Shown: positions 5,226 to 55,933 of the stretch, one piece after another
Layout: every line of letters begins with the position of its first letter
Position numbering within the stretch: position 1 is the first letter of the stretch
Assembly (NCBI GenBank): GCA_017883965.1
Contig: JAFNKG010000001.1
Span: 14,893-78,892 of the forward strand
Direction of reading: 5' to 3'
DNA: 64,000 bases
DNA from: Candidatus Methanophagales archaeon
GTDB taxonomy: Archaea > Halobacteriota > Syntropharchaeia > Alkanophagales > Methanospirareceae
Notes under the pieces: generated by a model
What the model was told of the DNA's origin: nothing
Seen by the model: the letters and a program-made list of their open reading frames with translations, nothing else
Databases searched by the model: none
Program-made: the position numbers and the translations under genes

Positions 5226-5257
5226 TAAACCTTCTTTTTACAAAGCAAAAATATAAA

Positions 5258-7246: not shown

Positions 7247-7273
7247 AGGAAGATCGAACTATTTATTGTTTAA

Positions 7274-25481: not shown

Positions 25482-25500
25482 GTGATATTGAAGTAGAGAT

Positions 25501-35705: not shown

Positions 35706-38321
35706 ATGGCAAAAGGGGAAACTACAAGGGGCGAAAAAGATACGATTTACCTCGTTCCACACACGCATTACGATGCCATCTGGGTCTTCACGAAGGAGGA
35801 TTATTTTCATATCAATCTGCTGCTTATTCTGAAGGAGGTAGTTGAGCTACTTGAAAAGACGGATTACAAGTTCCTGATAGAGCAAACCTTTCTGCTGGAA
35901 GAGCTGGAGATGAGGTATCCGGAACTATTCTCAAAGGTTGCGAAGTACATAAATGAAGGCAAGATAGAGATTGCCAACGGGGAATATCTGATGGCAGATA
36001 CGATGCTTCCGAATGGAGAAACACTGATAAGAGAAATCCTGGTTGGCAAGAGATACGTGAAGGAGAAATTCGGGGTTGACGTTCCGGTAATGTGGCAGGC
36101 AGACAGCTTTGGTTTGAATGCCCAGCTACCGCAGATATACAAAAAATCAGGCTACAAATATGTTGCATTCAGGAGGGGGGTAGCGAAGAGAAAGCCGTCG
36201 GAATTTATCTGGCAGGGCTTGGATGGAACGGGGATTTTAGCTCACTGGATGCCTTTAGGATACAGAGCAGGATTGGACCTGACACAGCTGGCGGAAAGCC
36301 ATGAGAAACTCAAGGAAGTAGCGGCGACCTCGCATATCTTGATGCCTTCCGGAAGTGGAGTTACGATGCCTCAGTCGGAAACGCCGGAGGTTGTGAAGGA
36401 GTGGAATGAGAATAACGGAGAATGGGCGAAGATTAAGATTGCAACGCTGAGTGAATTCTTTGAAGCACTGGAGAATGAAGTAGAAAACCAGAAGCTTAAG
36501 ATGGACGTGCGGAAAGGTGAGATGTATTCAGGGAAGTATTCCGAAGTTTTTCCAAATTGCTGCTCGAGCAGGATGTGGATAAAACAGGGGCTTTATGATT
36601 ACGAGACTTGGTTGTTAAGTTGCGAGCGATGGAGTGCAATATCTGCCATCCTGAATAGCCACTATCCATCAGAGGAGTTGATGAACTGCTGGCGGAAAAT
36701 TTTGTTCATCGCATTTCATGATGTAATTCCGGGAACAGGGATGGACAGGGGTTACGATGAGGTGAAGCAGTACATGAGCTTTCTCAAGACCGAGATGTCC
36801 ACCCACTGCCTTCGCGCACACACTCAAATAATAGAGGAGGAATCAAAGGAAGGCGAAGGCGAAGTTGAAAGCGGGGATATAATGGTATTTAACTCGCTGT
36901 CTTGGGAAGTGAAGAACTGGGTAGAGATGGAGTTGAATTTTGAGAAAGGGAAAATAGTAACGATTAAAGGCTTAAAGAGTGGAGAAGAGGAGATAGATGT
37001 GGAGGTGATAAAGTTTGCGAGGTATAAGGATGATTCGTTGAGGTCTGCGAAGATAGGATTTGTTCCCAAGGTTCCTGCGCTTGGATATAAGGTGTATAAA
37101 ATCCTTGAGCGTGAGCCGAAACGGTATAGTTATGACAAGAATTGTATCCTGATAAGAGGGAACACGATAGAAAATAGCTTCTTTGCGGTTGAGGTGGACC
37201 CAGCCACGGGGTTGGTTGACGTGGTTCAAGGCGATAGGAAGAGGATTTACACGGCGAATGAGCTTGTGCTGGAGGAAGAAACCGGCGACCTTTACTACCA
37301 CCGACAAACATTGGGCATCCCGGTGAAGACGGAAAAGGGAGAAGGGGTGAAGTATGGCTCGTTCAGGGTAGAGAACTTCGGGATAGCTAAAAGTTCTTTA
37401 AGGCGAGTTGTCAACGTCGAGACCAATTATTTCTCCCTGCGCTGGCCGTATAGATTGACGGAGAAGATGGAGCCAGTTATATGGCGGCATAAATTCTTAG
37501 AGTGCACAAAGAAAATAATAATTTATAAAGACATTCCGAGGATAGATTTCATCACGCACGTGGAGGATAAGCATCCGAGGGCACGGCTCAGAGTAAGGTT
37601 CTCCACGGACATAAAATCTTCGGAGTATGCCTGCGGTAGTCAATTTGGCGTTGTTTCCAGACCGACGGACCAAGCGAACTACAAGCCAGAAGAGGAATGG
37701 GTTGAGGAGCCCTGCGGTGCATTTCCTTCGCTGAGGTGGCTCGATTATTCTGACGGAAAGAAAGGCTTGACCGTGATTCACAGGGGGATACCGGAGAACG
37801 AGGTAAAAGATGGTGACATCTATTTAACACTGCTCAGAAGCGTTTTAATGCTGTCCTCGGATGGTAAGGCAGGTCCTGCGATACCTGTTCCGAATGCGCA
37901 GGAGTTGAGAAGATACGAATTCCAATATTCCATTTACCCGCACGAAGGAGACTGGCGTGAAGCATCATCCTACAAGCATGCTTATGAGTTCAACTTCGAT
38001 CTGGATGCAGTGCAGTTGCCGAAAGGCGTGAAACTACCTTTGAAACGGTCTTTTTTGAAAATAGAGCCGAAAAATGTCGTTTTATCCGCACTGAAAAAGA
38101 CAGAGGATGGGGATGGGGGAGTGATTCTGAGATTTTATGAGACGAAGGGGGAAGAGACGGATGCTGAGATATCACTGTTCAAAAAGCCAAAGGCAGTCAA
38201 GGCGGTGAATCTGCTGGAGGAAGAGGACGAAGGAGTGGAAAAAGAGTTGAAAAAAGCGGGAGATAAAATAGAGTTGAAGATGAAACCCTTTGAGATAGTT
38301 ACTTTGAAGGTGAACATTTAA
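35706..38321 (+). CDS. GH38-family alpha-mannosidase, copy 2
   Basis: 871 aa, about 88% identical to copy 1 over the full length. Confidence 0.85.
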   Translation: MAKGETTRGEKDTIYLVPHTHYDAIWVFTKEDYFHINLLLILKEVVELLEKTDYKFLIEQTFLLEELEMRYPELFSKVAKYINEGKIEIANGEYLMADTMLPNGETLIREILVGKRYVKEKFGVDVPVMWQADSFGLNAQLPQIYKKSGYKYVAFRRGVAKRKPSEFIWQGLDGTGILAHWMPLGYRAGLDLTQLAESHEKLKEVAATSHILMPSGSGVTMPQSETPEVVKEWNENNGEWAKIKIATLSEFFEALENEVENQKLKMDVRKGEMYSGKYSEVFPNCCSSRMWIKQGLYDYETWLLSCERWSAISAILNSHYPSEELMNCWRKILFIAFHDVIPGTGMDRGYDEVKQYMSFLKTEMSTHCLRAHTQIIEEESKEGEGEVESGDIMVFNSLSWEVKNWVEMELNFEKGKIVTIKGLKSGEEEIDVEVIKFARYKDDSLRSAKIGFVPKVPALGYKVYKILEREPKRYSYDKNCILIRGNTIENSFFAVEVDPATGLVDVVQGDRKRIYTANELVLEEETGDLYYHRQTLGIPVKTEKGEGVKYGSFRVENFGIAKSSLRRVVNVETNYFSLRWPYRLTEKMEPVIWRHKFLECTKKIIIYKDIPRIDFITHVEDKHPRARLRVRFSTDIKSSEYACGSQFGVVSRPTDQANYKPEEEWVEEPCGAFPSLRWLDYSDGKKGLTVIHRGIPENEVKDGDIYLTLLRSVLMLSSDGKAGPAIPVPNAQELRRYEFQYSIYPHEGDWREASSYKHAYEFNFDLDAVQLPKGVKLPLKRSFLKIEPKNVVLSALKKTEDGDGGVILRFYETKGEETDAEISLFKKPKAVKAVNLLEEEDEGVEKELKKAGDKIELKMKPFEIVTLKVNI

Positions 38322-38328
38322 TTCAATT

Positions 38329-38871
38329 TCAACGCAGCTTCAACTTTTCAACCAGCTCATCCAAATAACTTCCCCATTCCTCTTCGCTCATATTCGGAAA
38401 CGACATATCGGCATTTGGATGGAAGAACCTGCAAAGCGTGATTGTCCTCAGCCAGGGTGCGAAATGCTTAAGCGTGGACAGCCCTTGCGAGCTTATATAA
38501 TAAAGCACACCAAGGAACACGACGAGGTCATGCTGCCCTTCTCCTTTTACCCCTTTCCATTCCGCATCTCTCAACCTGTCTATTATGTTTATAATCGGCA
38601 TGCTGGCATCTGGCGGGAACTCCTTTTCCAGGAATTCTTTTAGTGTGTGTGCAACCGCAACTGTTGGCATTTTCGATTCCTTCGCTATTTCTATCGCATA
38701 ATCCATCAAACTCTTCCCATTAAGCTCTGTTTCTAAAACGAGCGAGCCGACGATGAAAAGAGGTCGTTTTGCCTCCTTTATTGCCCTTACTGCAACCGCA
38801 GGTGTTAAAATCTCTCCACGACGTGGACCTGGTATGTTTGCTATATCCCAGGGATCATTTTTTTCTACCAT
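38329..38871 (-). CDS. cdhB: CO dehydrogenase/acetyl-CoA synthase complex epsilon-subunit-like protein
   Basis: 180 aa. PGPRRGE...AIKEAKRPLFIVGS and C-terminal HPNADMSFPN recall the CdhB N- and C-termini. Last gene of the cdhA-containing operon. Call made from memory of the family and is not certain. Confidence 0.6.
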   Translation of the reverse strand: MVEKNDPWDIANIPGPRRGEILTPAVAVRAIKEAKRPLFIVGSLVLETELNGKSLMDYAIEIAKESKMPTVAVAHTLKEFLEKEFPPDASMPIINIIDRLRDAEWKGVKGEGQHDLVVFLGVLYYISSQGLSTLKHFAPWLRTITLCRFFHPNADMSFPNMSEEEWGSYLDELVEKLKLR

Positions 38872-38995
38872 TTTAAACCTTTTCTTAGAAAGAAAAGCTT
38901 TACCAAAAGAACTTTAAAAGATGTTATTTTATAAATATTTCGATATATTCTTGCACTAACTAAAAGATTATTGGTTACTTTCACCTCCTACTACC

Positions 38996-41449
38996 TTACC
39001 ACACACGTCCGCTGATGAAAAACGGTTTTTTACCCTCCATCTTGCTTATCTGCACTGCTCCTCGGTCCATAAGCGGAGCCACATATTTTAAAACATCCTG
39101 CACAGGTATCGAAAGTGTTTCCGAAATCCCTTCAATTGTATATTCCTCGCTCTCCAACATAGAAGTTACCTTTTCTTCCATGAATTCGCTTCTTATTATT
39201 TCCTCAAAAAAAGCATCTATCTCTTTCTCTTCCAATTTAACATATCTCGTAATTTCCGCTATCTTACCGACAATCCATCTTAGTTTAGGGTTATTCACAC
39301 CCTCTTTTACCGTGATGAGTGAGTCATAATGCTTTTCAAGCTCAAAAGGTCCCAATTCTTTTATCTCATTCACCGAACTCTCTATCAATTCCTTGAACTT
39401 CTGCCCTTCTGCTGCGGAAATCCAGCCGAGTCTTAACCTCTCCGGGTCTATTCCTGCGAATTCAAGCAGTTTCTTCACGAACTTCACGCGCATCTCTGCA
39501 TGATAGTTGCCCACAACATAATGACAATCGCCGATATGGCACCCTGTAACGAGAACACCTTCTGCGTGGTGGAAGAAAGGCTCGACCATCATCCACGGGT
39601 CTATTCGTCCGGAACACATCACCCTGATTAGCTTTGCATTCGGCGGATACTGGAATCGCGATACACCAGCCATATCTGCACCTGCGTAAGAGCACCAGTT
39701 GCAACTGAAAGCCAATATCCTCGGTCTTATCTCTATTCTCTCCTCTTCCGGCACAAACGCACTTTTTATCTGTGCTAAAATCTGCTCATCGCGGAAGTGC
39801 CGCATTGTTATCGCCTGATACGGACACGCACCTGCGCATGTTCCGCATCCTTTGCACAATGCCCTGTTCCCCTCTGCACCAAACTCCCCCGGTCCATACA
39901 TATTTATTTTAATACTGCCATATTCGCATATCTCCGCACATAATCCACATCCCTTGCATATACTCTGGCTTATGTCCGAAACAATACCCTCTGTTTCTAC
40001 TTCGCTTTTTGTCAATATTGTGGAAGCCCTTGATGCAGTTCCATACGCCTCCGCTACACTTTCAGGCACGAATTTCGGTGAATGCGCCGTCCCGCATAGA
40101 AAAACACCGTCGGTAGAGAAATCAATGGGTCGCAGCTTGACATGCGCTTCAAAGAAAAATCCATCCAGGCCCAACGGAACCCTTAATAGTTTAGAAAGTT
40201 CCAATGCATCCGGGTGCTGCACCATCGGTGTGGAGAGAACAACCAAATCGGCTTTGTATTCTCGCTCCTCTCTCACGAACTCAGAGAAGAACTTCACTTT
40301 CAGTCCTCCATCCTCTTTCACTACTTCCGGAAGTTTATCAGGACTATACTTATCGAATCGTATGCCGGTTTGCATTGCTTTCCTGTAAAGATTCTCGTAT
40401 TCGTCGCCAAATACACGAATCCCATTGTGGAGTATATGAATATTCGCATCAGGATTTTTTTCCTTGAGTAAAATTGCATTTTTTATCGCCACTGCACAAC
40501 AGATTCTCGAACAGTATGCCACTCTTTGCCCTCTGGAACCCACACATTGAATCATAACCACTTCTTTCTCTTTCAACTCGCTATCTTTCTGCTTCTCTTC
40601 CAGTTCCATCTGCGTGATTACTTCCTCATATTCGCCGTATCCATAGAGTCCGTCTGACTTTAGAACCTCCGCACCCGTGGCAACTATTATCGTGCCCACC
40701 TTGAAATTATGAGCTTTCTCCTCTCCATTCTCCTTTTGCACGACAGTTACCTCAAAGTTTCCGACATATCCGTCCACTTTCCTAACGAGGGAAGAAGTGA
40801 AGAGTTTTATTCGTTGATGCTCTTTTACTTTCTTAATTGTAGGTTCTAAAGATGCGAGAGCATCTACATTCCCGGGGTAAAGCTTGTTTATCTTTCGTAA
40901 CAGCCCTCCGACTTCCGCTTCTTTTTCCACGAGATACACATCGAAGCCTCGATTTGCAATACTTAGCGCTGTGGTCATGCCCGATACACCCGCACCAATA
41001 ACCATTGTAGTGTTCTCAACGCCGATATTTATGTATTCTAATGGCTCTAACCTCGCAGCTCTGACAACACCCATTCTAACCAAATCCTTTGCCTTCTCCG
41101 TTGCTTCTTCAGGCTCTCGCATGTGCACCCAGCTACACTGGTCTCGAATGTTCACAAAATCGAAAAGATAAGGGTTTAATCCTGCATCCTGGCACGCACT
41201 TCGGAATAACGGCTCGTGTGTTCTCGGTGTGCATGCCGCCACTATCACCCTGTTAAGCCCGTGTTCCTTTATCGCATTTTTTATCGCCGTCACGCCCTCA
41301 TCTGAACACGTGTATATATTGCGTTCCACATATACAACTCCGGGAAGCTTTTCTGCGTATTCTATTACTGATGGCACATCCACAGTGCCACCAATATTCG
41401 TGCCGCAGTGGCAAACAAAAACCCCTGTTCTTACCTCCTCATTTGCCAT
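38996..41449 (-). CDS. HdrA2-type heterodisulfide-reductase subunit A fused to an MvhD domain plus a C-terminal extension of about 130 aa
   Basis: HdrA motifs (VFVCHCGTNIGG, VIGAGVSGMTTA, two CxxCxxC ferredoxin clusters) followed by an MvhD motif (ILAFSCNWCSYAGADMAG). The C-terminal tail has no recognisable domain. Confidence 0.85.
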   Translation of the reverse strand: MANEEVRTGVFVCHCGTNIGGTVDVPSVIEYAEKLPGVVYVERNIYTCSDEGVTAIKNAIKEHGLNRVIVAACTPRTHEPLFRSACQDAGLNPYLFDFVNIRDQCSWVHMREPEEATEKAKDLVRMGVVRAARLEPLEYINIGVENTTMVIGAGVSGMTTALSIANRGFDVYLVEKEAEVGGLLRKINKLYPGNVDALASLEPTIKKVKEHQRIKLFTSSLVRKVDGYVGNFEVTVVQKENGEEKAHNFKVGTIIVATGAEVLKSDGLYGYGEYEEVITQMELEEKQKDSELKEKEVVMIQCVGSRGQRVAYCSRICCAVAIKNAILLKEKNPDANIHILHNGIRVFGDEYENLYRKAMQTGIRFDKYSPDKLPEVVKEDGGLKVKFFSEFVREEREYKADLVVLSTPMVQHPDALELSKLLRVPLGLDGFFFEAHVKLRPIDFSTDGVFLCGTAHSPKFVPESVAEAYGTASRASTILTKSEVETEGIVSDISQSICKGCGLCAEICEYGSIKINMYGPGEFGAEGNRALCKGCGTCAGACPYQAITMRHFRDEQILAQIKSAFVPEEERIEIRPRILAFSCNWCSYAGADMAGVSRFQYPPNAKLIRVMCSGRIDPWMMVEPFFHHAEGVLVTGCHIGDCHYVVGNYHAEMRVKFVKKLLEFAGIDPERLRLGWISAAEGQKFKELIESSVNEIKELGPFELEKHYDSLITVKEGVNNPKLRWIVGKIAEITRYVKLEEKEIDAFFEEIIRSEFMEEKVTSMLESEEYTIEGISETLSIPVQDVLKYVAPLMDRGAVQISKMEGKKPFFISGRVW

Positions 41450-41604
41450 TTTTTACTCCCTCCATTCGATGCCTTCTCTCTATAAACATTTCTTCAAAAG
41501 AGAAACTAATTACGATCTTTTCTCTCACCACCTCAATCCTCTTCATCTCCTCCAATGAATATCCCCCCTCATTCCTTTTGAACCTCTGCTTTCACTCCTT
41601 TTAT

Positions 41605-41925
41605 TCACACCTGTATTTTTGAGACTGTAATGCAGTAGAGTTTGTCTAGTTCAGTAAAATGATCTAACAAAGCCTCGTATAGTTGTGCCTGTTTAGAATT
41701 CATGAACACATATCCACACGTCGGACAATACATTTTTTCAAACCCATGTACCGTGATTCTACCATTTAAAAAATCGACATCAAATTGCTTTATTTCCAAT
41801 TTAGACCCACATTTTGGACATTCCGTTATTTCAACTATTTCCCAATCTTCTTCCTTCCACCCTTCTTCCCAACTTTCTTCCGCCATAATATCCTCTGGTT
41901 TTATTTCTTCTGTAACCATAACCAT
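41605..41925 (-). CDS. YgiT/MqsA-type zinc-ribbon protein; candidate antitoxin partner of the upstream BrnT-like gene
   Basis: 106 aa. CPKCGS...ITVHGF...YCPTCG zinc ribbon. Starts 4 nt after the brnT-like stop. A paralogous ribbon occurs in the 59587 protein. Confidence 0.55.
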   Translation of the reverse strand: MVMVTEEIKPEDIMAEESWEEGWKEEDWEIVEITECPKCGSKLEIKQFDVDFLNGRITVHGFEKMYCPTCGYVFMNSKQAQLYEALLDHFTELDKLYCITVSKIQV

Positions 41926-41929
41926 ATTA

Positions 41930-42208
41930 CTATTTTTTCGCTTTCCTCTTATATAACTTTTTCATCTTCTCTGGTGCTTCATATGCACTCAGCATTATAA
42001 ATATATTTTCTCTTACCTTCCGCAAAACTATGAATAGGACACGCCCTTCCGCTTCTGCTAAAACTATGGTGCGCTTTTCACCATTTCGAGTTACTGCTTT
42101 TGTATATGTTTTCCCAATTAAAGCATTTTCAACTTCATACCTCCTAACACCGTGCCTTCTAATATGCTCGATTGCCTTTTCATCCCAGACTATACGGACC
42201 TTTGACAT
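41930..42208 (-). CDS. BrnT-like (DUF497) toxin
   Basis: 92 aa. IVWDEKAIEHIRRHGV and IMLSAYEAPEKMKKLY match the BrnT N- and C-terminal motifs. Paralog of the 7274 gene. Confidence 0.6.
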   Translation of the reverse strand: MSKVRIVWDEKAIEHIRRHGVRRYEVENALIGKTYTKAVTRNGEKRTIVLAEAEGRVLFIVLRKVRENIFIMLSAYEAPEKMKKLYKRKAKK

Positions 42209-42289
42209 ATTGATACGCTCATTTATTCCCCTATCCCTCCCTTAATTTCAGATTTATCTATGATAAGCAAGTGTAAATGATGCATCTAA

Positions 42290-43606
42290 CTAAGACAATG
42301 AAGAAATAACCTCACCCGCTCTACCAGCCGCGCCACTCGCCTCTGCAACCGAATCCGTAATATCTTTTGGACTCTGTGCAAACCCACAAACAAATACTCC
42401 TTCTCTTGTGGTATCTACCGGCGCATATAACGGGTCTTTCACCTTAAAGAATCCATATTCGTCCAATTCTACTCCCAATATCTTTGCCTGTTCTTCGACT
42501 CCCTTACTCGGCACCAGCGCCGTAGCCAATATAACTAAATCAACCTCCATCCTTTTAAGTTCCCCTGTCAGGGTATCTTCATACCATATCACCGGGCTCT
42601 TATCCCCATTCTCCGTTATTTTCCCGGGTCTCGCCCTTATATAATTTATCCCATATTCTTCCATACCCCGCTCTATATACTCCTGAAAGCCTCTTCCAAA
42701 AGCTCTGAGGTCAGTATAAAATACGAAAGATTCCATATCCTCCTCATGTTCCCTCGCCAGCATCCCGCTCTTCGTTGAATACATGCAGCACACGGAGGAG
42801 CAATAAGGATATCTCTTCAGGTCCCTCGAGCCCACGCAAAGGATAAAAGCTAACTTCTTCGCTGGTTTTTCATCGCTTAACCGAACGAGATGCCCGCCAG
42901 TTGGTCCTCCTGCATTTATCATCCTCTCATACTGTAATCCCGTTATCACATTTTCTATTCGCCCATATCCATACTCCTCTATCTCATAAGGTTCATAAGC
43001 ATCGAGTCCTGTTGCAACTATTATAGCACCCACATGAAGCTCAACCTCTTCCTCTTTCTGCTCGAAATCAATCGCATCCCTCTCACACGCTTCTTTACAC
43101 GCTGGTGCTTCCCCGCATTTGCCCTTCGTTATGAATATACATCTTTCCTCATCAATTACCGCAACCCTCGGAACTGCCTGTGCAAAAGGCAGGTATGCCG
43201 CTCCTCTTTTCCCAAGCCCCATATCGAATTCGTCCGGGAATCTATCTTTAAGTAAACAAATATCTTCACAAGCGCTGCACCCCGTGCATTTTTCTTCGTC
43301 CACGTATCTCGGTTTCTTACGAACTTTTACAGTAAAGTCCCCTTTCTCTCCCGATACCTCGCTCACCACGGAATACGAAAGCACGGTGATGTTCTCATGC
43401 CCGAAACATTCGAGCATCTTCGGCGCAAGTATGCATATCGAGCAGTCATTTGTCGGGAAGGTTTTATCCAACTGAGCCATTCGACCACCGATAGAAGAAT
43501 TCTTCTCTACTAAATACACCCTGAAGTCCTGCTCCGCTAAGTCAAGCGCCGCTTGAATCCCTGCTACTCCTCCTCCTATCACCAGCACACTTTTATTGCC
43601 TTCCAT
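42290..43606 (-). CDS. truncated HdrA-like FAD flavoprotein lacking the N-terminal Cys domain and the C-terminal ferredoxin
   Basis: 438 aa. VLVIGGGVAGIQAA, the conserved CSICILAPKM and an inserted CTGCSACEDIC ferredoxin. HdrA core only. Confidence 0.8.
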   Translation of the reverse strand: MEGNKSVLVIGGGVAGIQAALDLAEQDFRVYLVEKNSSIGGRMAQLDKTFPTNDCSICILAPKMLECFGHENITVLSYSVVSEVSGEKGDFTVKVRKKPRYVDEEKCTGCSACEDICLLKDRFPDEFDMGLGKRGAAYLPFAQAVPRVAVIDEERCIFITKGKCGEAPACKEACERDAIDFEQKEEEVELHVGAIIVATGLDAYEPYEIEEYGYGRIENVITGLQYERMINAGGPTGGHLVRLSDEKPAKKLAFILCVGSRDLKRYPYCSSVCCMYSTKSGMLAREHEEDMESFVFYTDLRAFGRGFQEYIERGMEEYGINYIRARPGKITENGDKSPVIWYEDTLTGELKRMEVDLVILATALVPSKGVEEQAKILGVELDEYGFFKVKDPLYAPVDTTREGVFVCGFAQSPKDITDSVAEASGAAGRAGEVISSLS

Positions 43607-43670
43607 TTCCGCTCACCCTAATTTTTTTTCGATTCCGGAATATAAAAATATTAATGAAACTTTTTTACAA

Positions 43671-44075
43671 TCAATCATTGCCATTTTCAAAACTGGTCAC
43701 TTTATTTTTCCTAAAGCAGATTTCAAAGTGTTTGAAGACATCTTCTCTTCCTAAAAGATAAGGAACATCCTCGATTAATGCAATTGCAACCTTGGCTTTA
43801 AACATTTTATCTACAATCTTCATTCTAACTTCTTTTATGATTACCGGAATTTTGCCATCTCCAATTCCTCTTATCTCTTTAATATCCTCCTCTTCCACCC
43901 TTGTCTTTAATGCCCTAATGAAAGATATTGGAAGAAGCGTAACATCCGCACCTGAATCAGTATAAGCCAGTATCCGTGTCCAACCGAGTTCTTCGGTCTC
44001 TATTTCAAATTCGACAATAGGCCTGTAAATCTCTCCAAATATCCTCGACCTCTCTTTTTGATAGGGAAAATCCAT
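43671..44075 (-). CDS. retropepsin-like aspartic protease (DSGA active site), copy 1
   Basis: 134 aa. AYTDSGADVTLLP has the clan-AA D[ST]GA motif. Paralog of 49228-49641. Confidence 0.7.
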   Translation of the reverse strand: MDFPYQKERSRIFGEIYRPIVEFEIETEELGWTRILAYTDSGADVTLLPISFIRALKTRVEEEDIKEIRGIGDGKIPVIIKEVRMKIVDKMFKAKVAIALIEDVPYLLGREDVFKHFEICFRKNKVTSFENGND

Positions 44076-44315
44076 CTAATCACCTGTAAGAATCAATGTC
44101 TCTTCCCTTTGCACAAACGCCAAGACTGGGTTATCTTTTGGAAAATCTTTTTTCGCCTTTTCTAAGACATCTATTGCATTATCTCCGCTGGCAACAATCT
44201 TCTTTCCTATCAGTGCGATGTGTTTCCCTCTAAACGCTTCTAATTCCTTTGGAAAAGAAGCAAACCATTTTAGTTCTTCATACATTCTTTCACTACCTCT
44301 TTTCTTTTTGTGCAT
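44076..44315 (-). CDS. small conserved partner protein of the aspartic protease, copy 1
   Basis: 79 aa. Homologous to 49650-49883 (YEELKWF...KIVASG...ETLILT versus YEWFL...KVVARA...ETLVLI). Abuts the protease gene. Confidence 0.45.
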   Translation of the reverse strand: MHKKKRGSERMYEELKWFASFPKELEAFRGKHIALIGKKIVASGDNAIDVLEKAKKDFPKDNPVLAFVQREETLILTGD

Positions 44316-44339
44316 ACTTTTATTATAATTTTTAGTTTT

Positions 44340-45437
44340 TTAAACTTCCCCTAATTTCTCTAACTCCTCTACACCTCTCTTCTTTTTCAAACTCGCTAAC
44401 TTCGCTATCTCATTGCGATCAACAGAAGTTGTTTCTAAGCCTTTCCCTTTCAATAAACCAAACAACTCCTCACCCTTCTTTGACCTTGTAATCACAGTCG
44501 AATACCCATCAGGACTGCCGACACTGCCCACAGAGATGTCAGCCAATCTGGCAGTAAAATCAGTGCAGAAAAAGCAGCTCTCTCGCACCGCTCTTTCCAG
44601 TTCTCCCACCTCACATGCCTTTGACTTGCCTTCTATATACACAACGAACTTCCCCTTCTTCACATCTATTTTATCCGCAAGCCCAAGGTCAACCTCCAGT
44701 ATTTCACTTACAATCGGTTTGAGCAATTCATAATAAAAATTCTCGAAACAGAAAAGCCCTATATTATACAACTCCACATCAGAATAAACTCTTTGAATTC
44801 TTCTAATTCCATAAATACTGCACGGGAGAGCAACAATTGCTATTCTCTCCTTCCCTCCTCCTATTATTGCTTCCACCAGTCTTTCTACGGTAGGTGCGAA
44901 TTGATATTTAGAGCCACTCGCTTTGATAATATCCTCCACATTCTCTGTCATAATCGCTTTAGCCCTGAAACCATCCTCTCTATGCACGACAATCGCACTG
45001 TCAAAAAGCCCTTTTTCCATACCCGCGGTTAACAACGAAGTAACTATCCCTCCGTCTTGCCCTTCCACGACAGTTTTTCCTGCCGTTATTTCCTTCACGA
45101 TGCCAATATCCTCTTCCCTCTCTCCGTCCAAGAACAACTGCTCGAGCTCACTCACGTATGTCTCTTCTTCAATCCCGGATTTTAATGCCCCTGCTTTGAG
45201 CCCCCAGATAAACTTCGGATAAGCCACCTCCGATGGACATCTGTCACTGCATATCTGGCAACTCATGCAAGACCATATTTTTTCATCAAGGTCAATAAAC
45301 CCCTCCAGCGCTCTTTTAGCAATCAACCGTGGAGAATAATCGGATTCAAACCACGATATCGGGCAGCTGGCATTGCATTTGCCGCATTCCAGGCAGTTAT
45401 ACACCTTCGTTTCCTGGATGAGTTCTTCTATTTCCAT
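44340..45437 (-). CDS. FrhB/FpoF-family F420-interacting iron-sulfur flavoprotein with an N-terminal 2x[4Fe-4S] ferredoxin
   Basis: CLECGKCNASCP and CMSCQICSDRCP motifs followed by FrhB N- and C-domains. Confidence 0.8.
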   Translation of the reverse strand: MEIEELIQETKVYNCLECGKCNASCPISWFESDYSPRLIAKRALEGFIDLDEKIWSCMSCQICSDRCPSEVAYPKFIWGLKAGALKSGIEEETYVSELEQLFLDGEREEDIGIVKEITAGKTVVEGQDGGIVTSLLTAGMEKGLFDSAIVVHREDGFRAKAIMTENVEDIIKASGSKYQFAPTVERLVEAIIGGGKERIAIVALPCSIYGIRRIQRVYSDVELYNIGLFCFENFYYELLKPIVSEILEVDLGLADKIDVKKGKFVVYIEGKSKACEVGELERAVRESCFFCTDFTARLADISVGSVGSPDGYSTVITRSKKGEELFGLLKGKGLETTSVDRNEIAKLASLKKKRGVEELEKLGEV

Positions 45438-45443
45438 TTTATT

Positions 45444-47798
45444 TCACTTCCATCCGTTTCTAAACCGCTCTAAGTTTGTGGGGTCAAATATCTTTCCCGG
45501 TGGCATTTTCATCGGCTTCCAGCCTATTTTTTCCAATTCAATTTTCAGCTCCTTTCTTTTCGCAGGCGGTAATTCTGACTCGTCTCGCACAAACAAATGC
45601 CAATCGTCTGGCATTGTCCCGAACATCCGCTCGTGCAAATCTATATAATTGCTTAATTTTATTAATCTTCCTCTTGGATTGTCACTCGGTCTTATGCAGA
45701 GCTTTGCAGTCATTACCATCGCTTCTTCCTTTGTTTCTGCTGCATATATCAGATGTTCGGGTGCGGGTCCAAAATAGAATGGTTCTCCCCCTACTTTGAC
45801 GTTGTAGGCATACCAGTCCTCCTCTTTATCTTTTCTGCCAAGATAAAGTCTTCTGTATGCTTTAGAGCCATGAGGTCCTAAGATCACAGGGATTCCCCAT
45901 CTGTTGCAGCCAGTAGCGATAGAAGCCGCCTTCTGCGACATCGCACCCCATGCAACTCCACAAGCACCAACTCTGCTTAATATGTAGTCAGAGATTTCCT
46001 CGAAGTTACCTCTTAGCTTCCTTCTTGCGAATATCCCTGCTATTTTTATCGCAGCGCCAATGACATGTGCATTTGAGACGCAAGAGCCGATGTTCACCAT
46101 GCAACCTCTATCAAAAGCACCTGTATATTTTTCATACAACGTCTTCCCTTCTTCATCCTTATATCTGGCTATCTCCATTGCAGAGCACCCGGTTGCCACC
46201 ACGATATATCCGCGCTTTGCGAATTCATCCGCCATCTCCGCAACTTCGCTTCCCCCTTTTGGGTAGTTTGGACAGCCAACGTACGCTATCACACCAGGGA
46301 TGTCACCAAAAACGATAGGTGCGCCGACATTCCTTATCTCAGTATCCAAAACCGGACCTCGCCCCGCTCTTACTTTATACTTCTCTTCCTTTATTTTGTA
46401 TTCCGCCGCCACTTTTATCATGTTCAGTGGCGATAGTTCTGCTCTGCATACTGATTCACACTTTGCACAGCCCACACACGCCTCATATAACCCTGCAAGC
46501 TTATCAAAGCTGCCTTTCGCTCCTGCTACCATCGCATCCGGGATATGCAAATCATTTGGACATGCCCTTCTGCATTCGTCACACTGCACACAAGATTCCG
46601 CAAGTTTTTTCAGCTCTCCTCTGTCAGGCAAAGCTTTTAAACGCTCTCTTTTTGGCGACACCCGCAAAGCAACCTCAACAGCAACTTCTCCTACCTTCTC
46701 CGCATCGAGTATCAATGCACCTGGCGCTCCATTCACCAAATCATTTATTATCTCCTCCGCAGGGGCATCGGTCCTATCAGGAAGCCCATAGCATATTTTG
46801 TCATTGCTTGCTATTACCCGCGTCTTCACCTTCATAGCTTCTTCCAATACATCTGTCCGCACACATTGTTCATCCACTACGATAACATCTGCTATCCTCG
46901 ACCTTATGGCGTATAACTGCTGAGCTATGTGACCGACGATTTTAGCCCTTGGCTCGTATCTCGTTATATCTGTCGCTGTGCAACACATCCCGCAGACTTC
47001 CACTTCGCCCTCCATCCCCCTCGCTGTAAGATAATCCACCATTTCTGCACCCGGCACAACATTATGTCCTATACACAAAATCACGGGCTTAGACCTCTCA
47101 ACAACGCCAAGACCTAATTCAACCAAAGGGGCATCAGGGTCACCTTTGGGGAAATTATAACCCACTATCTGTGCTATATCAGCTATTTCCTTTGCTAAGT
47201 TGTCAATCATGCCAATATGCAAATTTTTAGACTCGAAATCAATAAAAGCTCCTTCTTGACCCGTGTTCACAGCGGATAGGCAATTTGTAATCTCCTTCTC
47301 TACATAGTCCAATGCATCATCCAAATCACCCAATCGCCTCGGTCTTATTCCTGTGACTGTTCTTGTTATCGGAGCTTCAATATCAATATACGAACCTAAA
47401 TCTATCGGGAAATTGCTGCCATACTTTTCTATCAAATGGTCAACCAAATGACGAGCATGTCCAGTATGAGCAGCAGTCCCCATACAACACGCTATCAGAA
47501 CGATTCTTGCCTGCTGTGCATCTATTTTTATTCCACATGCACCCTTCTTGCCGCATGTTAGGTCGCATTTCCCATACGTACAGAGACAGCACATGTCGCA
47601 GAACGGTGCGTAAAAAGGCTTATATCGGTTCAAAAGTCTGAAGTCCCAGCCTCGAAGCGTTGATATGCTCGGCATCGAATGAGGTCCCATCGGTTCCCAT
47701 TCTTCCTCTCCCCACTCCTCTATTATCTCGCCTATGCTTATCCGCACGTTTTGCAAGTCGGAGAAGGTGAAAATCCCGCCCTTTTTTATTGCTTCCAT
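45444..47798 (-). CDS. cdhA: CO dehydrogenase/acetyl-CoA synthase complex alpha subunit (Ni-Fe-S CODH catalytic subunit)
   Basis: 784 aa. Colinear with CdhA ([32 protein letters not shown], inserted ferredoxin [47 protein letters not shown]). Confidence 0.9.
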
Positions 47799-48025: not shown

Positions 48026-48397
48026 CTATTCATACTTGGATGGGCATTTAACCAGTAGTTGTGTCGCATTCAGATGATAGGGCGAAGTAAGCGTTCCTAT
48101 GGCAACTATTTTTTGCCCCTCTTTGAAGTTCTGAGGCATAGTTCCTGCGAATGCCACATCTATTGTAGCCTTGCCGTCAGTGAGTTTAAAGAGTAAAGAA
48201 CCATCCTCTCCCCAACCTGTGGACCCGCTGACAACAGTGGCTAAAATCTGAACCTCTTTGTTAATATATTCGTCATTACCAGCGACCTGCGAGACTGTTA
48301 AATAAGGATTGATATAAGATGTAAAGGCATCGTAGGCGAGAATTGTACTTATAACTATTAGAGCGACAACGATAATATGAACGGGTTTAAATTTCAT
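48026..48397 (-). CDS. ccmE: cytochrome c-type biogenesis heme chaperone CcmE (archaeal CxxxY type)
   Basis: 123 aa. N-terminal membrane anchor, OB-fold region, and C-terminal LVKCPSKYE, the archaeal C-x3-Y heme-binding motif. Confidence 0.8.
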   Translation of the reverse strand: MKFKPVHIIVVALIVISTILAYDAFTSYINPYLTVSQVAGNDEYINKEVQILATVVSGSTGWGEDGSLLFKLTDGKATIDVAFAGTMPQNFKEGQKIVAIGTLTSPYHLNATQLLVKCPSKYE

Positions 48398-48421
48398 TTT
48401 TCTTCTTCCCTTTTTTCTCTT

Positions 48422-48547
48422 TCACTCCTCCCCTACTTCTAAATCTGCTATCTTCTCTTTAAGCGAGGATAAACGTCTATTAAGCCAGATAAAAACTACC
48501 AAAAGGGACGTCCAGTAAATGATAGAAACGAGAAAGACTTCAAACAT
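48422..48547 (-). CDS. ccmD: CcmD-like small membrane protein (not in the ORF track)
   Basis: 41-aa ORF MFEVFLVSIIYWTSLLVVFIWLNRRLSSLKEKIADLEVGEE read by hand between ccmC and ccmE. One TM helix plus a charged tail. Confidence 0.4.
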   Translation of the reverse strand: MFEVFLVSIIYWTSLLVVFIWLNRRLSSLKEKIADLEVGEE

Positions 48548-48553
48548 ATTCTT

Positions 48554-49231
48554 TTAAACACCTCCTTTTTCGTAGATTAATGCGTTCACACGGCTTTCTA
48601 AAGACCAGACAGTGGATGCGGTTATCAGGAGATAAAAGAAGAATAGGGAAGCTGCTAAGAGATTAAAAAATAAAGTTGCAAGCATTGGCGAGGTTATAGA
48701 AATTCCAGACGCTTTCACTATCTGAGGATGAAGCGTTGACAATAGATTTATGGACAGATAACTCAGCGGTATGGTAGAAAAAGCGAGGATATTATACACC
48801 GCTCCTATTACCGCTCTTTTCTCAACTTCTCCGATGGAGTATTTTACGGAAATATAGCCCGCGTATGCAATCCAGAGTATGAGCGTAGTTGTTTCTCTCG
48901 GGTCCCAGTTCCAATAGCTCCCCCATGTGGCGTTTGCCCAAATCGAACCAGAAATCAATGCTATTGCACCATAAACCAACCCTAAGATAGCCGATACCTC
49001 TGCCGTTCTATCGTATGTATGCTTTCTTTTAGCTAAAAAGAGGATGCTTGCGAACAGAGAAAGTGAAAAAGCAAGATAGCAAACCCATGCTGCGGGCACA
49101 TGCGTATATAAAATCCGGTAAAGGTCTCCCATAGTTGCTTCTGAAGGAGCGGCAACATAAGCCGCATAAGAAGCGATTACGCTCACTGCTACGGCGATGC
49201 AAAGAAGAATATCTCGCTTCATTTCCTTCAT
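48554..49231 (-). CDS. ccmC: heme exporter protein CcmC
   Basis: 225 aa. WWD-motif region WGSYWNWDPRE and a conserved His-containing loop. Confidence 0.85.
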   Translation of the reverse strand: MKEMKRDILLCIAVAVSVIASYAAYVAAPSEATMGDLYRILYTHVPAAWVCYLAFSLSLFASILFLAKRKHTYDRTAEVSAILGLVYGAIALISGSIWANATWGSYWNWDPRETTTLILWIAYAGYISVKYSIGEVEKRAVIGAVYNILAFSTIPLSYLSINLLSTLHPQIVKASGISITSPMLATLFFNLLAASLFFFYLLITASTVWSLESRVNALIYEKGGV

Positions 49232-49641
49232 TTTTTACCCACCCATTCAAACAAAATAATCCCTTCACTCTGTTTGAATTCAACATTAAACCTGTCAAAA
49301 ACGTCCAATATCTCAAGCAATGGTGGAACATCCTCTATCAGTGCCCACGCGACCCTTGCATCGAATTCACATTCTCCAATGGTCATCTTCACCCACTTGA
49401 CGATAACCGGAACTTTTCCTTTGCTTATTCCAACAAGTTCAAATACTCGTGATTCGTCCATTTTAAAACCCGGCGCTTCACCGAAAATCCTCGGCAGCAA
49501 TGCTATATCCGCACCAGAATCTATGTACATCGGAACAATCGTTTTTCCTTCTTCCGTCACTAACGTAACCTCGGCAACTGGTCTATATATCACATCCGTT
49601 ATTGCCGAAAGTTCTTTTCGATATTTGAAAATAATCGTCAT
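49228..49641 (-). CDS. retropepsin-like aspartic protease (DSGA), copy 2
   Basis: 137 aa. MYIDSGADIALLP. Stop abuts the ccmC start. Confidence 0.7.
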   Translation of the reverse strand: MTIIFKYRKELSAITDVIYRPVAEVTLVTEEGKTIVPMYIDSGADIALLPRIFGEAPGFKMDESRVFELVGISKGKVPVIVKWVKMTIGECEFDARVAWALIEDVPPLLEILDVFDRFNVEFKQSEGIILFEWVGKK

Positions 49642-49649
49642 TCTACTCC

Positions 49650-49883
49650 CTATATTAATACTAATGTCTCAGAAGATGGGACTTTTGCCACAAATGGGAT
49701 TTTTCCTTTATATTTCTTCCTGATCTCGTCTAAAGCAGCTTTTAAATTCTCCTTTGCACGTGCAACAACTTTCTGCTCGATTATAATTACGTATTCATTC
49801 TCCTCGTATTCTCTCAGGTCAGCATTCAAAAACCATTCGTAATCTTTGCTCGCCATCTCTTCACCTCCTCTCCCCTTTGCCAA
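49650..49883 (-). CDS. small conserved partner protein of the aspartic protease, copy 2
   Basis: 77 aa. Paralog of 44076-44315. Confidence 0.45.
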   Translation of the reverse strand: MAKGRGGEEMASKDYEWFLNADLREYEENEYVIIIEQKVVARAKENLKAALDEIRKKYKGKIPFVAKVPSSETLVLI

Positions 49884-49975
49884 ATTTATCTATTATCATC
49901 TTCTATTAAAAAGGATTTATGCCTTACCTTATAATAAAGGTATTGAACTCGTGTATAAGACACTGATGGTGACAA

Positions 49976-50635
49976 ATGTATAATAACGCAATAGCAGTGG
50001 AAATCATAGAAGTCTCGAAGAGATATGGTTACTTACAGGCTTTGAAATCCGTGTCATTGGAAATAGAAGAAGGCGAATTTCTGGCTTTTTCAGGTCACAA
50101 CGGGGCGGGAAAGACAACGTTGCTGAAAATAATCGCCACGCATATCTCACCATCTTCGGGAACGGTGAAAATATTTGGCGATGATGCATTCAAAAACAGT
50201 GCAGAAATAAGAAGAAGGATTGGTTTGGTAACGCATGAAAGTTTTCTTTATGACGAGCTGAGCGTGAAAGAGAATTTGCTATTCTATGCGAAACTATTCT
50301 CGGTAAAAGAAGAGGAGGACTTCCTCGACACGATTGAATTTTTGGGTCTGAAACGCTGGTATAACGTTCCGGTGAAGCAACTGTCGCATGGATTAAGAAA
50401 GAGGGCGGACATCGTGAGAGCGTTAATTCATAACCCGGATTTAATCTTGCTTGATGAACCTTTTGCAGGACTGGACACGAACACCTGTGACATTCTCGTA
50501 AACTACTTCAAAAGCCGGAAAGGAAAAGGGAAGACGCTATTAATATCGTCTCATTCCTTAGAGTGGTCGAAGAAAATTTGCGATAAGCGAATCTCGCTCG
50601 ATAAGGGTAAAATAGTAGGAGAAATATCATTTTAG
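49976..50635 (+). CDS. ccmA: heme exporter ATP-binding protein CcmA (ABC ATPase)
   Basis: Walker A (GHNGAGKTT), Walker B (ILLDEPFAGLD). Followed by ccmB. Confidence 0.75.
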   Translation: MYNNAIAVEIIEVSKRYGYLQALKSVSLEIEEGEFLAFSGHNGAGKTTLLKIIATHISPSSGTVKIFGDDAFKNSAEIRRRIGLVTHESFLYDELSVKENLLFYAKLFSVKEEEDFLDTIEFLGLKRWYNVPVKQLSHGLRKRADIVRALIHNPDLILLDEPFAGLDTNTCDILVNYFKSRKGKGKTLLISSHSLEWSKKICDKRISLDKGKIVGEISF

Positions 50636-50645
50636 AGAGGCAACA

Positions 50646-51338
50646 ATGAAAAATATTTGGGATTTTCAAAGAGCTGCTCTTGGGATAGCGGAGAAAGACC
50701 TGAGGGCAGAGTTACGGCGGTCTTACGAAGTTCTATCAATTCTTACCTTCTCGGTGGGTTCCATACTGATTTGCAGTTTCGCGTGGAGTGGCGGTTCGGT
50801 AGGTTCGAAACCCGAAGTGGCATCCGCAGCACTCTGGATTATCCTGTTCTTCGCGAGTATCCTCGCATTTACCACTTCGTTTACGCGCGAAGCAGACCGG
50901 GGAACACTCGGCGGTTTGAAAACTCTACCCTGCTCACCACTGGCAATCCTTTACGGCAAAATCATTTATGGAACGGCGCTGCTTTTTTTCGTGGAATGCG
51001 TCTTAATTCCTTTTTCTATCATTTTTTTAAACCTCGAATTGAGTGGAAGATTTCCCGCTCTCTTGCTCGTATGCTTCTTAGGTGCGATGGGTCTCTCGTT
51101 TGCGGGTTCCTTTGTTTCAGGGCTCGTGATGTTCTCGGAAGGTAAAACATTACTCCTTTCTTTTCTCCTTATTCCTGTTTGTATGCCGGTGCTTATACCG
51201 TCAGTTGTGGCAACGGAGGAAATCATCGGAGGTTCCGGTATAACCGAAGTAGTGCCGGAATTGCGACTGCTAATCTCTTTTCTACTTCTGATAACCGCGG
51301 TAATGATTCTCACTTTCGAGTTTGTTCTTGAAGAATAA
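50646..51338 (+). CDS. ccmB: heme exporter membrane protein CcmB
   Basis: 230 aa with six hydrophobic helices, downstream of ccmA. The N-terminus shows only weak CcmB-like similarity. Confidence 0.65.
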   Translation: MKNIWDFQRAALGIAEKDLRAELRRSYEVLSILTFSVGSILICSFAWSGGSVGSKPEVASAALWIILFFASILAFTTSFTREADRGTLGGLKTLPCSPLAILYGKIIYGTALLFFVECVLIPFSIIFLNLELSGRFPALLLVCFLGAMGLSFAGSFVSGLVMFSEGKTLLLSFLLIPVCMPVLIPSVVATEEIIGGSGITEVVPELRLLISFLLLITAVMILTFEFVLEE

Positions 51339-54775: not shown

Positions 54776-55933
54776 TTATAATTCTTCCCCTTCTAACAAC
54801 CGCCCTAAAAATACCGCAAGGTCAACTATCTCAAAATTATATTCACATCCGCATTCTTCTTCTCCTTCCGCCTCTTTCTCTTTCTCCGTCTCCGTTTCGC
54901 GCTTCAAACAATTTAAATGTGACAAGCATTTCGGACAGGTGGTTATCAACGCATCCACTTCCTTATCTTTTACTTCATCCAGCCGGAAAGCTCTGAGTGC
55001 TTTACTCATATCATTGCAGTTCATCATCGCGCTAACACCACAGCAAAGAGAATTGTCTTTGGAGTGATTCAGTTCTACATATCTTGCCCCGGACTTCGTT
55101 ATCGCATCCCGTGGCGCTTCGTATAACTGAAAACGTTTCATTGCGCAGGGGTCATGGTATGTTACCGTTCTGGCACGATTATTCGCTTTTTCTAAATCTG
55201 GGAAATCCATTTTCTCGCTCAACGATAGTAATTGAGAAACATGTATAACCTCTACACCCATAGCTTCCAGTTCGTAATATCTCTTGAAAGTGAGGAAACA
55301 CTCAGCACAACTTACAACGAGCTTCTTTATCCCCATCTCCTTTATTTTTTTTGTATTGTAAGAAGCGAGCTGCTCGAAAACCTTATAATTGCCCTGATAA
55401 AGCACGTCATGTCCACAGCATTTCAAGCTTGCAATTCCTGGCTTTATCCCTATTTCATTCAGCAGCTTTACTGCGTAATCACCTATCTCATGAAAGTTCA
55501 CACCTACGTCCATAAACAGGTCGAAATAATCCAAACAGCCGGGGAAATAGCCATACTCGCTATTTTCAGCTATTTCACCTTTGAAATCCGTTGGCACACC
55601 TTTATCAAAGAAAGTCATGAAAGTGGCTATCTCGGAAAATACCCTGTGCGCTAAACTATCCTCGTTTACTCCTCCTTCGCTCCTCAAACCTAGTATAAGC
55701 GCTGGAAAATCCACTCCCTGTGGACATACAGCATAGCAATTGTCACAAATCAAACAGTTCCATTGCTCATTCTCATCTGTATCCGTATCCGTATCAAAGT
55801 CATATAAGAAGCTACGAGGATTGAATTTTGATACCCTGCGCATTGGACACGTCCCCGTGCATTGCCCGCATTGATAACAAAGCCTTGAAATACTCGAATA
55901 TCTTTGTGTAATGCTTTCGCTCTTTTTCGCCAT
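54776..55933 (-). CDS. HdrD-like iron-sulfur oxidoreductase (ferredoxin domain plus two CCG domains)
   Basis: CYQCGQCTGTCP and CLICDNCYAVCP clusters, then CCG-type Cys motifs. A DTDTDTD low-complexity insertion. Confidence 0.75.
   Translation of the reverse strand: MAKKSESITQRYSSISRLCYQCGQCTGTCPMRRVSKFNPRSFLYDFDTDTDTDENEQWNCLICDNCYAVCPQGVDFPALILGLRSEGGVNEDSLAHRVFSEIATFMTFFDKGVPTDFKGEIAENSEYGYFPGCLDYFDLFMDVGVNFHEIGDYAVKLLNEIGIKPGIASLKCCGHDVLYQGNYKVFEQLASYNTKKIKEMGIKKLVVSCAECFLTFKRYYELEAMGVEVIHVSQLLSLSEKMDFPDLEKANNRARTVTYHDPCAMKRFQLYEAPRDAITKSGARYVELNHSKDNSLCCGVSAMMNCNDMSKALRAFRLDEVKDKEVDALITTCPKCLSHLNCLKRETETEKEKEAEGEEECGCEYNFEIVDLAVFLGRLLEGEEL

Follow-up and report, generated by a model that had tools for sequence, protein, structure and literature searches.

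The window analysed here, a stretch of 64,000 nucleotides from a Candidatus Methanophagales archaeon (assembly GCA_017883965.1, contig JAFNKG010000001.1, positions 14,893 to 78,892), carries a gene cluster in which cdhA and cdhB, the genes for the catalytic alpha subunit and the epsilon subunit of carbon monoxide dehydrogenase (CODH), are parted by genes for an FrhB-type oxidoreductase of coenzyme F420 and two HdrA proteins. The closest relatives of the window are metagenome-assembled genomes (MAGs) labelled Methanophagales, the anaerobic methanotrophic (ANME) archaea of group ANME-1. Nine open reading frames (ORFs), all on the minus strand, run from 47798 to 38329, and an ORF check of the window places them at exactly the coordinates and in the order given by an earlier sequence-only reading of this DNA. 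That reading treated the nine genes as one system, which holds for the five whose order is conserved in related genomes, namely cdhA, HdrC-like/frhB, short hdrA, long hdrA-mvhD and cdhB, but not for the remaining four, a DUF5678/protease pair and a BrnT/Zn-ribbon pair, which are insertions. F420-coupled CODH enzymes and tandem HdrA proteins of ANME archaea are known themes; what no description was found of is the presence of an HdrA pair in a CODH cluster and of an FrhB protein with an HdrC-like N-terminal domain.

The cdhA-cdhB cluster and its conservation

The cluster opens with cdhA (45444-47798), which encodes a protein of 784 aa and is preceded by a TTTAAATA box about 50 nt upstream of its ATG. 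The gene for the FrhB protein (44340-45437) starts 6 nt past the end of cdhA and encodes 365 aa, in which an HdrC-like domain for two [4Fe-4S] clusters is fused to an FrhB-type F420 oxidoreductase domain (PF04422 and PF04432). It is followed by a gene for a short HdrA of 438 aa (42290-43606), by one for a long HdrA-MvhD fusion of 817 aa (38996-41449; PF02662 at 168 bits) and by cdhB (38329-38871), which encodes the epsilon subunit of 180 aa and closes the cluster in all ANME-1 loci.

Loci related to this cluster were found through contigs encoding close CdhA homologs and through one scan of GTDB species genomes. The complete five-gene order is present in seven other loci (L002/L009 from Kmv05, L004, L007, L008, L011 and L036), all from Methanophagales or from MAGs labelled only archaeon, and two incomplete contigs, L010 (ANME-1-THS) and L041, agree with the start of this order as far as their sequence runs. 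Identity between the CdhA proteins of the ANME-1 loci is 85-94%, intergenic gaps measure 2-59 nt wherever they are uninterrupted by an insertion, and all five genes diverge in parallel, with ratios of nonsynonymous to synonymous substitution rates (dN/dS) of 0.03-0.22. The genes flanking the cluster are unrelated to it and vary: cytochrome c maturation (ccm) genes lie upstream and a GH38 mannosidase gene lies downstream on the opposite strand in this window, while L002 and L004 have CofD upstream and triose-phosphate isomerase downstream, so that the linkage of the five genes is not merely the synteny of a larger block. No locus was recovered in which cdhA and cdhB are rejoined or the middle module is lost. 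The five-gene linkage is thus real and conserved rather than due to chance, and conservation of gene order in relatives, a check named beforehand in the sequence-only reading, shows the association of FrhB and HdrA with the CODH genes to be more than a one-off split of an operon.

Beyond ANME-1, the arrangement is different. Nearly all recovered relatives of CdhA at 49-70% identity are encoded in loci in which cdhA is followed directly by cdhB and then, where the sequence reaches, by cdhC (tblastn hits). Their labels are Bathyarchaeia/Bathyarchaeota, Nitrososphaeria/Nitrososphaerales, Thermoproteota, Methanocellales, Methanoliparum and Halobacteriota/'Halobacteria', to which the contigs L006, the closest canonical relative, and L046 are added. 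The absence of cdhC, cdhD and cdhE from the window, as claimed earlier, is borne out by tblastn, which detects no homolog of CdhC, CdhD, CdhE or CooC across the entire 64 kb, and the same method found none of the four when applied to nine ANME-1 loci and their flanks, up to 10 kb long. A CdhC search returned at least 120 near-equidistant matches, and the one context looked at is a canonical cdhABC locus.

Both CODH subunits resemble their counterparts in acetyl-CoA decarbonylase/synthase (ACDS) and lie above the cutoffs of its equivalog models, CdhA with 1188 bits on TIGR00314 (cutoff 781.3) and CdhB with 159.8 bits on TIGR00315 (cutoff 101.2), the latter also matching PF02552. The best match of CdhA in the PDB is the ACDS alpha subunit of Ethanoperedens (8RIU chain A, 964 bits), with Methanosarcina CdhA at 804-823 bits. 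Judged by inspection of the alignment, the Cys/His cluster motifs of CdhA are conserved relative to 8RIU_A along residues 5-761, and a Fer4 dicluster, an extra ferredoxin-like insert for two [4Fe-4S] clusters, occupies residues 398-456. In Methanosarcina, the disordered N-terminus of CdhA tethers the CODH to the ACDS supercomplex (PMC13370988), and this N-terminal tether region is present here and conserved across the clade. Taken with the equivalog score and with the finding of a single cdhA locus per ANME-1 genome in the GTDB scan, which was pattern-based and not exhaustive, it indicates indirectly that CdhA still belongs to ACDS; the 'stand-alone' CO-oxidising module proposed in the sequence-only reading is unproven.

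The genes between cdhA and cdhB also occur by themselves. When five contigs encoding FrhB homologs were looked up, proteins of 48-59% identity were found in trios of FrhB, short HdrA and long HdrA (with MvhD), with no cdh genes nearby (L042, L043 from a Methanoregula MAG, L044/L045 and L048). The FrhB proteins of these trios have the HdrC-like N-terminus, HdrBC are missing, and the C-terminal tails of the long HdrA vary, being winged-helix-like in L042 and extended by about 300 aa in L043 and L044. As the trio occurs without cdh in other archaea, it can be regarded as a pre-existing module placed between cdhA and cdhB, and the ANME-1 operon looks like the product of such an insertion. No description of a stand-alone FrhB-HdrA-HdrA(MvhD) trio was found in the literature searched.

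Another FrhB/MvhD redox set adjoins cdh genes in Bathyarchaeota, where, at 16918-22009 of contig L028 (also on L030), a full cdhABCDE is followed on the opposite strand by genes for a ferredoxin, an FrhB-like protein, a GltD/NfnB-like-MvhD fusion and a MetF C-terminal-domain protein.

The HdrC-FrhB protein and the paired HdrA proteins

The FrhB protein's N-terminal domain is related to HdrC. The top PDB matches of residues 1-112 are five HdrC sequences with E values from 8e-12 to 3e-8 (7BKB_C, 8e-12; 5ODC_C, 2e-10), and the domain also matches the HdrC models of NCBIfam. The zeta subunit of the Ethanoperedens CODH (8RIU_B) is not among the 60 best PDB matches of these 112 residues; its match to the FrhB protein is confined to residues 101-362 and, at 130 bits, scores under the match to ordinary FrhB. 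The FrhB domain itself is of the standard F420/FAD/[4Fe-4S] kind, with Cys ligands and a GQDGG motif that are invariant in the family alignment (A1). There is no separate HdrC subunit, the domain fused to FrhB being the only HdrC-like element, and neither the cluster nor the 10 kb around it in any related locus contains a gene for HdrB or HdrD, the proteins with CCG domains.

The two HdrA proteins differ in the domains that they retain. Long HdrA comprises, in order, an N-terminal Fe-S domain, the FAD domain, a C-terminal ferredoxin domain, an MvhD [2Fe-2S] domain, which matches 5ODC_D at 2e-45, a helical linker and a winged-helix-like tail. In its alignment to the HdrA of M. wolfeii (5ODC_A), the inserted ferredoxin domain (residues 238-318) is passed over, and Asp and Ala stand in for Cys194 and Cys197. 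The match of short HdrA to M. wolfeii HdrA is limited to residues 145-562, the N-terminal and C-terminal domains being absent; the protein consists of the thioredoxin-reductase/FAD domain with the inserted ferredoxin domain, and retains Cys194 and Cys197, the DKTFPTNDCSIC motif being found in all orthologs. When aligned to 5ODC_A across the FAD-binding thioredoxin-reductase domain, both proteins keep the CVGSR...C...CC motif for a [4Fe-4S] cluster. This complementarity of short and long HdrA recurs in every ANME-1 copy and every cdh-less trio examined, and we infer from the sequences that the two proteins are complementary halves of one asymmetric heterodimer.

The sequence-only reading had described short HdrA as truncated. 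It is instead a paralog of conserved length (428-455 aa), and the idea that it represents a decayed fragment was rejected on account of this length, of dN/dS values of about 0.03-0.12 and of the retention of all motifs. The best NCBIfam match of both HdrA proteins is NF040770 (HdrA2), at 757 and 545 bits and thus under its cutoff of 1100. The HdrA2B2C2 system of Methanosarcina acetivorans, which is F420H2- and ferredoxin-dependent and to which this model refers, shares the fusion of HdrA to MvhD; the cluster described here differs from it in having no HdrB2C2, two complementary paralogs in place of a single HdrA, and the extra winged-helix-like tail on the long copy. This tail comprises about 115 residues after MvhD, among them a helical linker that is conserved and what is probably a winged-helix domain. 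The match of the tail to TrmB is marginal, its single-sequence structural model has a mean confidence (pLDDT) of 65, and the Foldseek matches of this model, though all winged helix-turn-helix folds, have E values of 5e-3 or higher, so that the winged-helix assignment is only indicative.

Tandem HdrA proteins have been noted before in ANME genomes, where the pairs HdrA5/6 and HdrA12/13 are read as asymmetric heterodimers by Chadwick et al. (PMC9012536). These pairs show the same complementarity as the one described here, but are listed with HdrBC, HdrD, MvhD and FrhB4/5 rather than with CODH.

Two further Hdr-related genes are found in the window. A third HdrA of 710 aa, encoded at 5114-7246 on the plus strand, is full-length, without MvhD, and has no adjoining hdrB or hdrC; its score on the HdrA2 model, 883 bits, is under the cutoff, and its presence agrees with the surplus of HdrA genes over HdrBC genes reported for ANME-1. 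At 54776-55933 on the minus strand, next to an enolase gene, lies a gene for an HdrD/TfrB-like protein that has a dicluster domain at its N-terminus and a pair of CCG domains. It is 7 kb upstream of cdhA, in the same orientation, and near the cluster in other ANME-1 loci no counterpart of it is found.

Known systems and possible electron routes

An enzyme of the kind that the sequence-only reading took to be uncharacterised, a CO:F420 oxidoreductase, was purified and assayed in 2024, and clusters of FrhB with CODH genes were reported in 2022. In the more recent study, Lemaire, Wegener and Wagner purified the CODH component of Ca. Ethanoperedens thermophilum and crystallised it as an alpha2 epsilon2 zeta2 complex (PDB 8RIU), zeta being an FrhB-like F420 reductase whose N-terminal ferredoxin domain anchors it at the alpha/epsilon junction, and showed CO-dependent reduction of F420, an activity not detected in enrichment extracts of ANME-1 and ANME-2 (PMC11493965). 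The authors suggested an F420-linked CODH in ANME-1 as well and raised CO detoxification or scavenging as a possible role of zeta-associated second isoforms (PMC11493965). As in 8RIU, CdhA and CdhB are encoded here with an FrhB-family flavoprotein bearing an N-terminal domain for two [4Fe-4S] clusters, and frhB adjoins cdhA. In contrast to 8RIU, which has no HdrA or MvhD and in which the N-terminal domain of zeta is of the ferredoxin type, the domain here is HdrC-like, and whereas the Ethanoperedens genes lie with other ACDS genes, cdhCDE are absent from this locus.

Chadwick et al. described clusters of FrhB7 with the CODH alpha and epsilon genes in ANME-1, proposed reduction of F420 from CO/CO2 and found high transcript levels of FrhB7 in one ANME-1 (PMC9012536). 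These clusters come from the same archaeal order, join the genes for CODH alpha and epsilon to one for an FrhB paralog and prompted the same idea of F420 reduction, but no HdrA lies between their genes; the locus tags of FrhB7, alpha and epsilon are consecutive and no Hdr cluster in table S10 of that study lists CODH (PMC9012536), whereas here two hdrA genes part frhB from cdhB. The M. hungatei complex Fdh-Hdr-Fmd (7BKB), joining formate dehydrogenase (Fdh) to formylmethanofuran dehydrogenase (Fmd), and the Elp-Hdr-Fmd complex of M. marburgensis (PMC12350162) likewise combine an HdrA core, an MvhD connector, an F420 site of the FrhB/FdhB type and a CO2-reducing metalloenzyme attached without free ferredoxin. 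They differ in that HdrBC are present and heterodisulfide is reduced, the attached enzyme is Fmd and not CODH, and HdrA forms a symmetric homodimer. No structural or biochemical account of a CODH-HdrA complex from ANME-1, nor of a CODH cluster with an HdrA pair, was found in the literature searched, the figures of which were not covered.

The favoured reading, to which we assign a probability of roughly 40%, is that the products of the cluster form a CODH-HdrA-FrhB complex that couples CO2/CO to F420 plus ferredoxin. In its fuller form, which is slightly more tentative, the five proteins would be the first CO dehydrogenase built onto an HdrA-type bifurcating core, an asymmetric heterodimer with HdrC-FrhB in the place of HdrBC, that serves either the reduction of CO2 to CO by F420H2 and ferredoxin or the splitting of electrons from CO, with no heterodisulfide step. 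The HdrA core is known to offer three electron paths, one through HdrC to HdrB and the heterodisulfide, one through the C-terminal ferredoxin domain and MvhD to a hydrogenase, formate dehydrogenase or Elp donor, and one that uses the N-terminal cluster with the inserted ferredoxin domain and ends at ferredoxin or at an Fmd attached to the core (PMC9012536, PMC12350162). Long HdrA would provide the N-terminal Fe-S domain, the C-terminal ferredoxin domain and MvhD, and short HdrA would contribute Cys197, completing the N-terminal cluster, and the inserted ferredoxin domain, so that the usual ferredoxin-facing domain of the ferredoxin path would reside on short HdrA. Since HdrC is fused to FrhB and HdrB is missing, the HdrC path would end at an F420 site; the FrhB subunit probably docks on HdrA via its HdrC-like domain, which would put this site where the heterodisulfide site of HdrB normally sits. 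On the MvhD arm, CdhA/CdhB, the only other redox enzyme that the operon encodes, would most simply replace the hydrogenase or formate dehydrogenase as donor.

The overall reaction of such a complex would be 2 CO + F420 + 2 Fd(ox) <-> 2 CO2 + F420H2 + 2 Fd(red), where Fd is ferredoxin. In a methane oxidiser that builds acetyl-CoA, the useful direction would be the reverse one, in which F420H2 and reduced ferredoxin reduce CO2 to enzyme-bound CO, and this would halve the ferredoxin demand of the carbonyl branch. The donors of the reverse direction average about -420 mV against -520 mV for CO2/CO (standard potentials), and CO2 reduction would thus need CO to be kept at about 10^-3 to 10^-4 of CO2, a level that is plausible provided that acetyl-CoA synthase uses up the CO. 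Strict coupling would also account for the failure of CO by itself to reduce F420 in extracts of ANME-1, although the enrichment may simply be without the cluster. Such a complex would have precedents in 8RIU, in which a CODH carries an FrhB-type F420 reductase, and in Elp-Hdr-Fmd, an HdrA complex with a directly attached CO2 reductase that runs on F420H2. Of the connection proposed in the sequence-only reading, from a CO module to F420, HdrA and the heterodisulfide, an F420-linked, HdrA-associated CODH is plausible, while the heterodisulfide arm is unsupported, no HdrB or HdrD being conserved nearby.

Several considerations weigh against the proposed complex. CO, at -520 mV, reduces F420 or ferredoxin without any bifurcation, and the reverse reaction needs a very low steady-state level of CO. 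The module works without CODH elsewhere and the operon tolerates unrelated insertions, so that the co-location could be non-functional. The CODH is placed on the MvhD arm purely by analogy, and the Fe-S domain that would contact CdhA is presumed. Finally, CO-dependent reduction of F420 was not seen in ANME-1 enrichment extracts (PMC11493965), though a strictly coupled enzyme would need a second acceptor and the cluster may be missing from the enrichment.

Taken further, the second of these points leads to an alternative without functional coupling, according to which the FrhB-HdrA-HdrA module landed between cdhA and cdhB in an ancestor, and CdhA and CdhB serve a ferredoxin-dependent ACDS whose cdhCDE lie elsewhere. 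The autonomy of the module in other lineages, the acceptance of unrelated insertions at several junctions of the operon (toxin-antitoxin-like pairs, a tetratricopeptide repeat (TPR) protein and a 95-aa ORF) and the full ACDS equivalog status of CdhA, along with the conservation of its N-terminal tether region, all speak for it. We consider it unlikely, as order and very short gaps are kept across loci with differing flanks and 85-94% CdhA identity, no locus has cdhA and cdhB rejoined or the module lost, and, given that alpha and epsilon are obligate partners in an alpha2 epsilon2 unit, their parting would be an odd thing to preserve unless all five proteins were made together.

A further alternative accepts a complex but assigns the CODH to the low-potential arm. 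Oxidation of F420H2 at FrhB would yield one low-potential pair of electrons for CO2 reduction at CdhA, which would take the place of Fmd, and one high-potential pair, which would pass via MvhD to HdrBC or HdrD from another locus. Of the versions in which the idea of a CO/F420/CoM-S-S-CoB oxidoreductase could be rescued, this one is the nearest to the original. Exactly such chemistry is performed by Elp-Hdr-Fmd and Fdh-Hdr-Fmd with formylmethanofuran dehydrogenase, HdrA genes outnumber HdrBC genes in ANME-1 genomes (PMC9012536), and in this window the HdrD/TfrB-like CCG protein at 54776-55933 is encoded 7 kb off. However, no HdrB or HdrD is conserved near the cluster in other loci, the fusion of the HdrC-like domain to FrhB argues for F420 and not heterodisulfide at the HdrBC position, and MvhD normally joins a donor module rather than an acceptor, which together leave this arrangement with a low probability.

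That the cluster encodes a plain F420-reducing CODH like the alpha2 epsilon2 zeta2 enzyme of Ethanoperedens, with FrhB docked on CdhA/CdhB and the HdrA proteins separate in role, is more doubtful still. Here 8RIU provides both a structural and an enzymatic precedent, frhB lies immediately downstream of cdhA, and an F420-linked CODH in ANME-1 has been suggested by Chadwick et al. and Lemaire et al. Against this, the N-terminal docking domain of FrhB matches HdrC and has no detectable match to the N-terminal domain of zeta, this type of FrhB accompanies the HdrA pair even where cdh genes are absent, and CO-to-F420 activity was not found in ANME-1 extracts. A second CODH isoform for CO detoxification or scavenging, apart from ACDS, is the most improbable alternative: it accords with the role raised by Lemaire et al. 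for zeta-associated second isoforms and with the absence of cdhCDE and cooC from the 64 kb and from the flanks of related loci, but CdhA is not divergent, given its 1188 bits against the ACDS equivalog and the conservation of its N-terminal tether, the genome scan, though not exhaustive, gave one cdhA locus per ANME-1 genome, and a detoxifying enzyme would need no bifurcation module.

ANME-1 archaea consume much of the methane that rises through marine sediments. To our knowledge, these archaea, which have to balance electrons between ferredoxin, F420 and thiols, lack HdrDE and most known ferredoxin-oxidising complexes. If the CODH-HdrA-FrhB complex exists as proposed, a CODH on an HdrA/FrhB module would be a new point of entry or exit for low-potential electrons, and a third wiring of the ancient CODH/ACS enzyme after ferredoxin and the zeta subunit. 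The stand-alone trio of Methanoregula and other archaea, likewise lacking HdrBC, is a candidate for a separate bifurcation module, and the operon of ANME-1 offers a natural clue to the partner of its MvhD arm.

Inserted small genes and other genes of the window

The four remaining genes of the cluster form two pairs, both on the minus strand. The first (43671-44315) consists of a gene for a DUF5678 protein (44076-44315), identified by profile search, and one for a retropepsin-like protein (43671-44075; PF00077 at 22.5 bits, barely over the cutoff). It is missing at the equivalent junction of L002, L004, L007, L008 and L011, and is present in L041 at 1743-2348, the protease-like proteins measuring about 135 aa. 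A second copy lies at 49228-49883 of the window, again on the minus strand and within the ccm genes, and its protease-like protein shares 47% identity with that of the first copy; the pair has the look of a mobile, toxin-antitoxin-like module. The ccm genes extend over 48026-51338 in two divergent groups, ccmE/ccmC on the minus and ccmA/ccmB on the plus strand, and the DUF5678/protease pair sits between these groups.

The second pair (41605-42208) encodes a BrnT-like protein (41930-42208; PF04365 at 29 bits, under the cutoff of 34.5) and a Zn-ribbon protein resembling DUF7479/MqsA (41605-41925). Both Pfam matches are weak, and no homolog of the pair is found in any other ANME-1 locus. At the same junction, L007 (14876-15163) and L011 (9994-10302) carry a near-identical ORF of 95-102 aa with no Pfam match. 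Since most orthologous operons are without them, the DUF5678/protease and BrnT/Zn-ribbon pairs were rejected as subunits of a complex; the four small genes are lineage-specific toxin-antitoxin-like insertions that the operon tolerates, and may be selfish elements. A PADLOC scan of the small genes returned nothing meaningful. In L036, a gene for a TPR protein of 412 aa (6370-7608) is inserted at an inter-gene junction, and the junctions of the ANME-1 operons behave as insertion hot spots. A further DUF7479/MqsA-like Zn-ribbon protein of 151 aa is encoded on the plus strand of the window at 59587-60042, without an obvious toxin partner.

The CooT-like nickel protein that the sequence-only reading had added to its picture is a genuine homolog of this nickel chaperone, encoded at 60777-60962 on the plus strand and matching PF10133 over its full length at 75 bits, with a Met-Cys start. 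Its gene is unlinked to the cdh genes, however, lying 13 kb away on the opposite strand between neighbours that encode an amino-acid-kinase-family protein and a B3/4-domain protein.

On the plus strand at 23434-28119, genes for a mannosyl-3-phosphoglycerate synthase and a phosphatase of the haloacid dehalogenase (HAD) family are followed by one for a GH38 alpha-mannosidase, and a second GH38 paralog, at 35706-38321 on the same strand, abuts cdhB. The mannosyl-3-phosphoglycerate synthase, HAD phosphatase and GH38 genes suggest a gene set to make and degrade the compatible solute mannosylglycerate.

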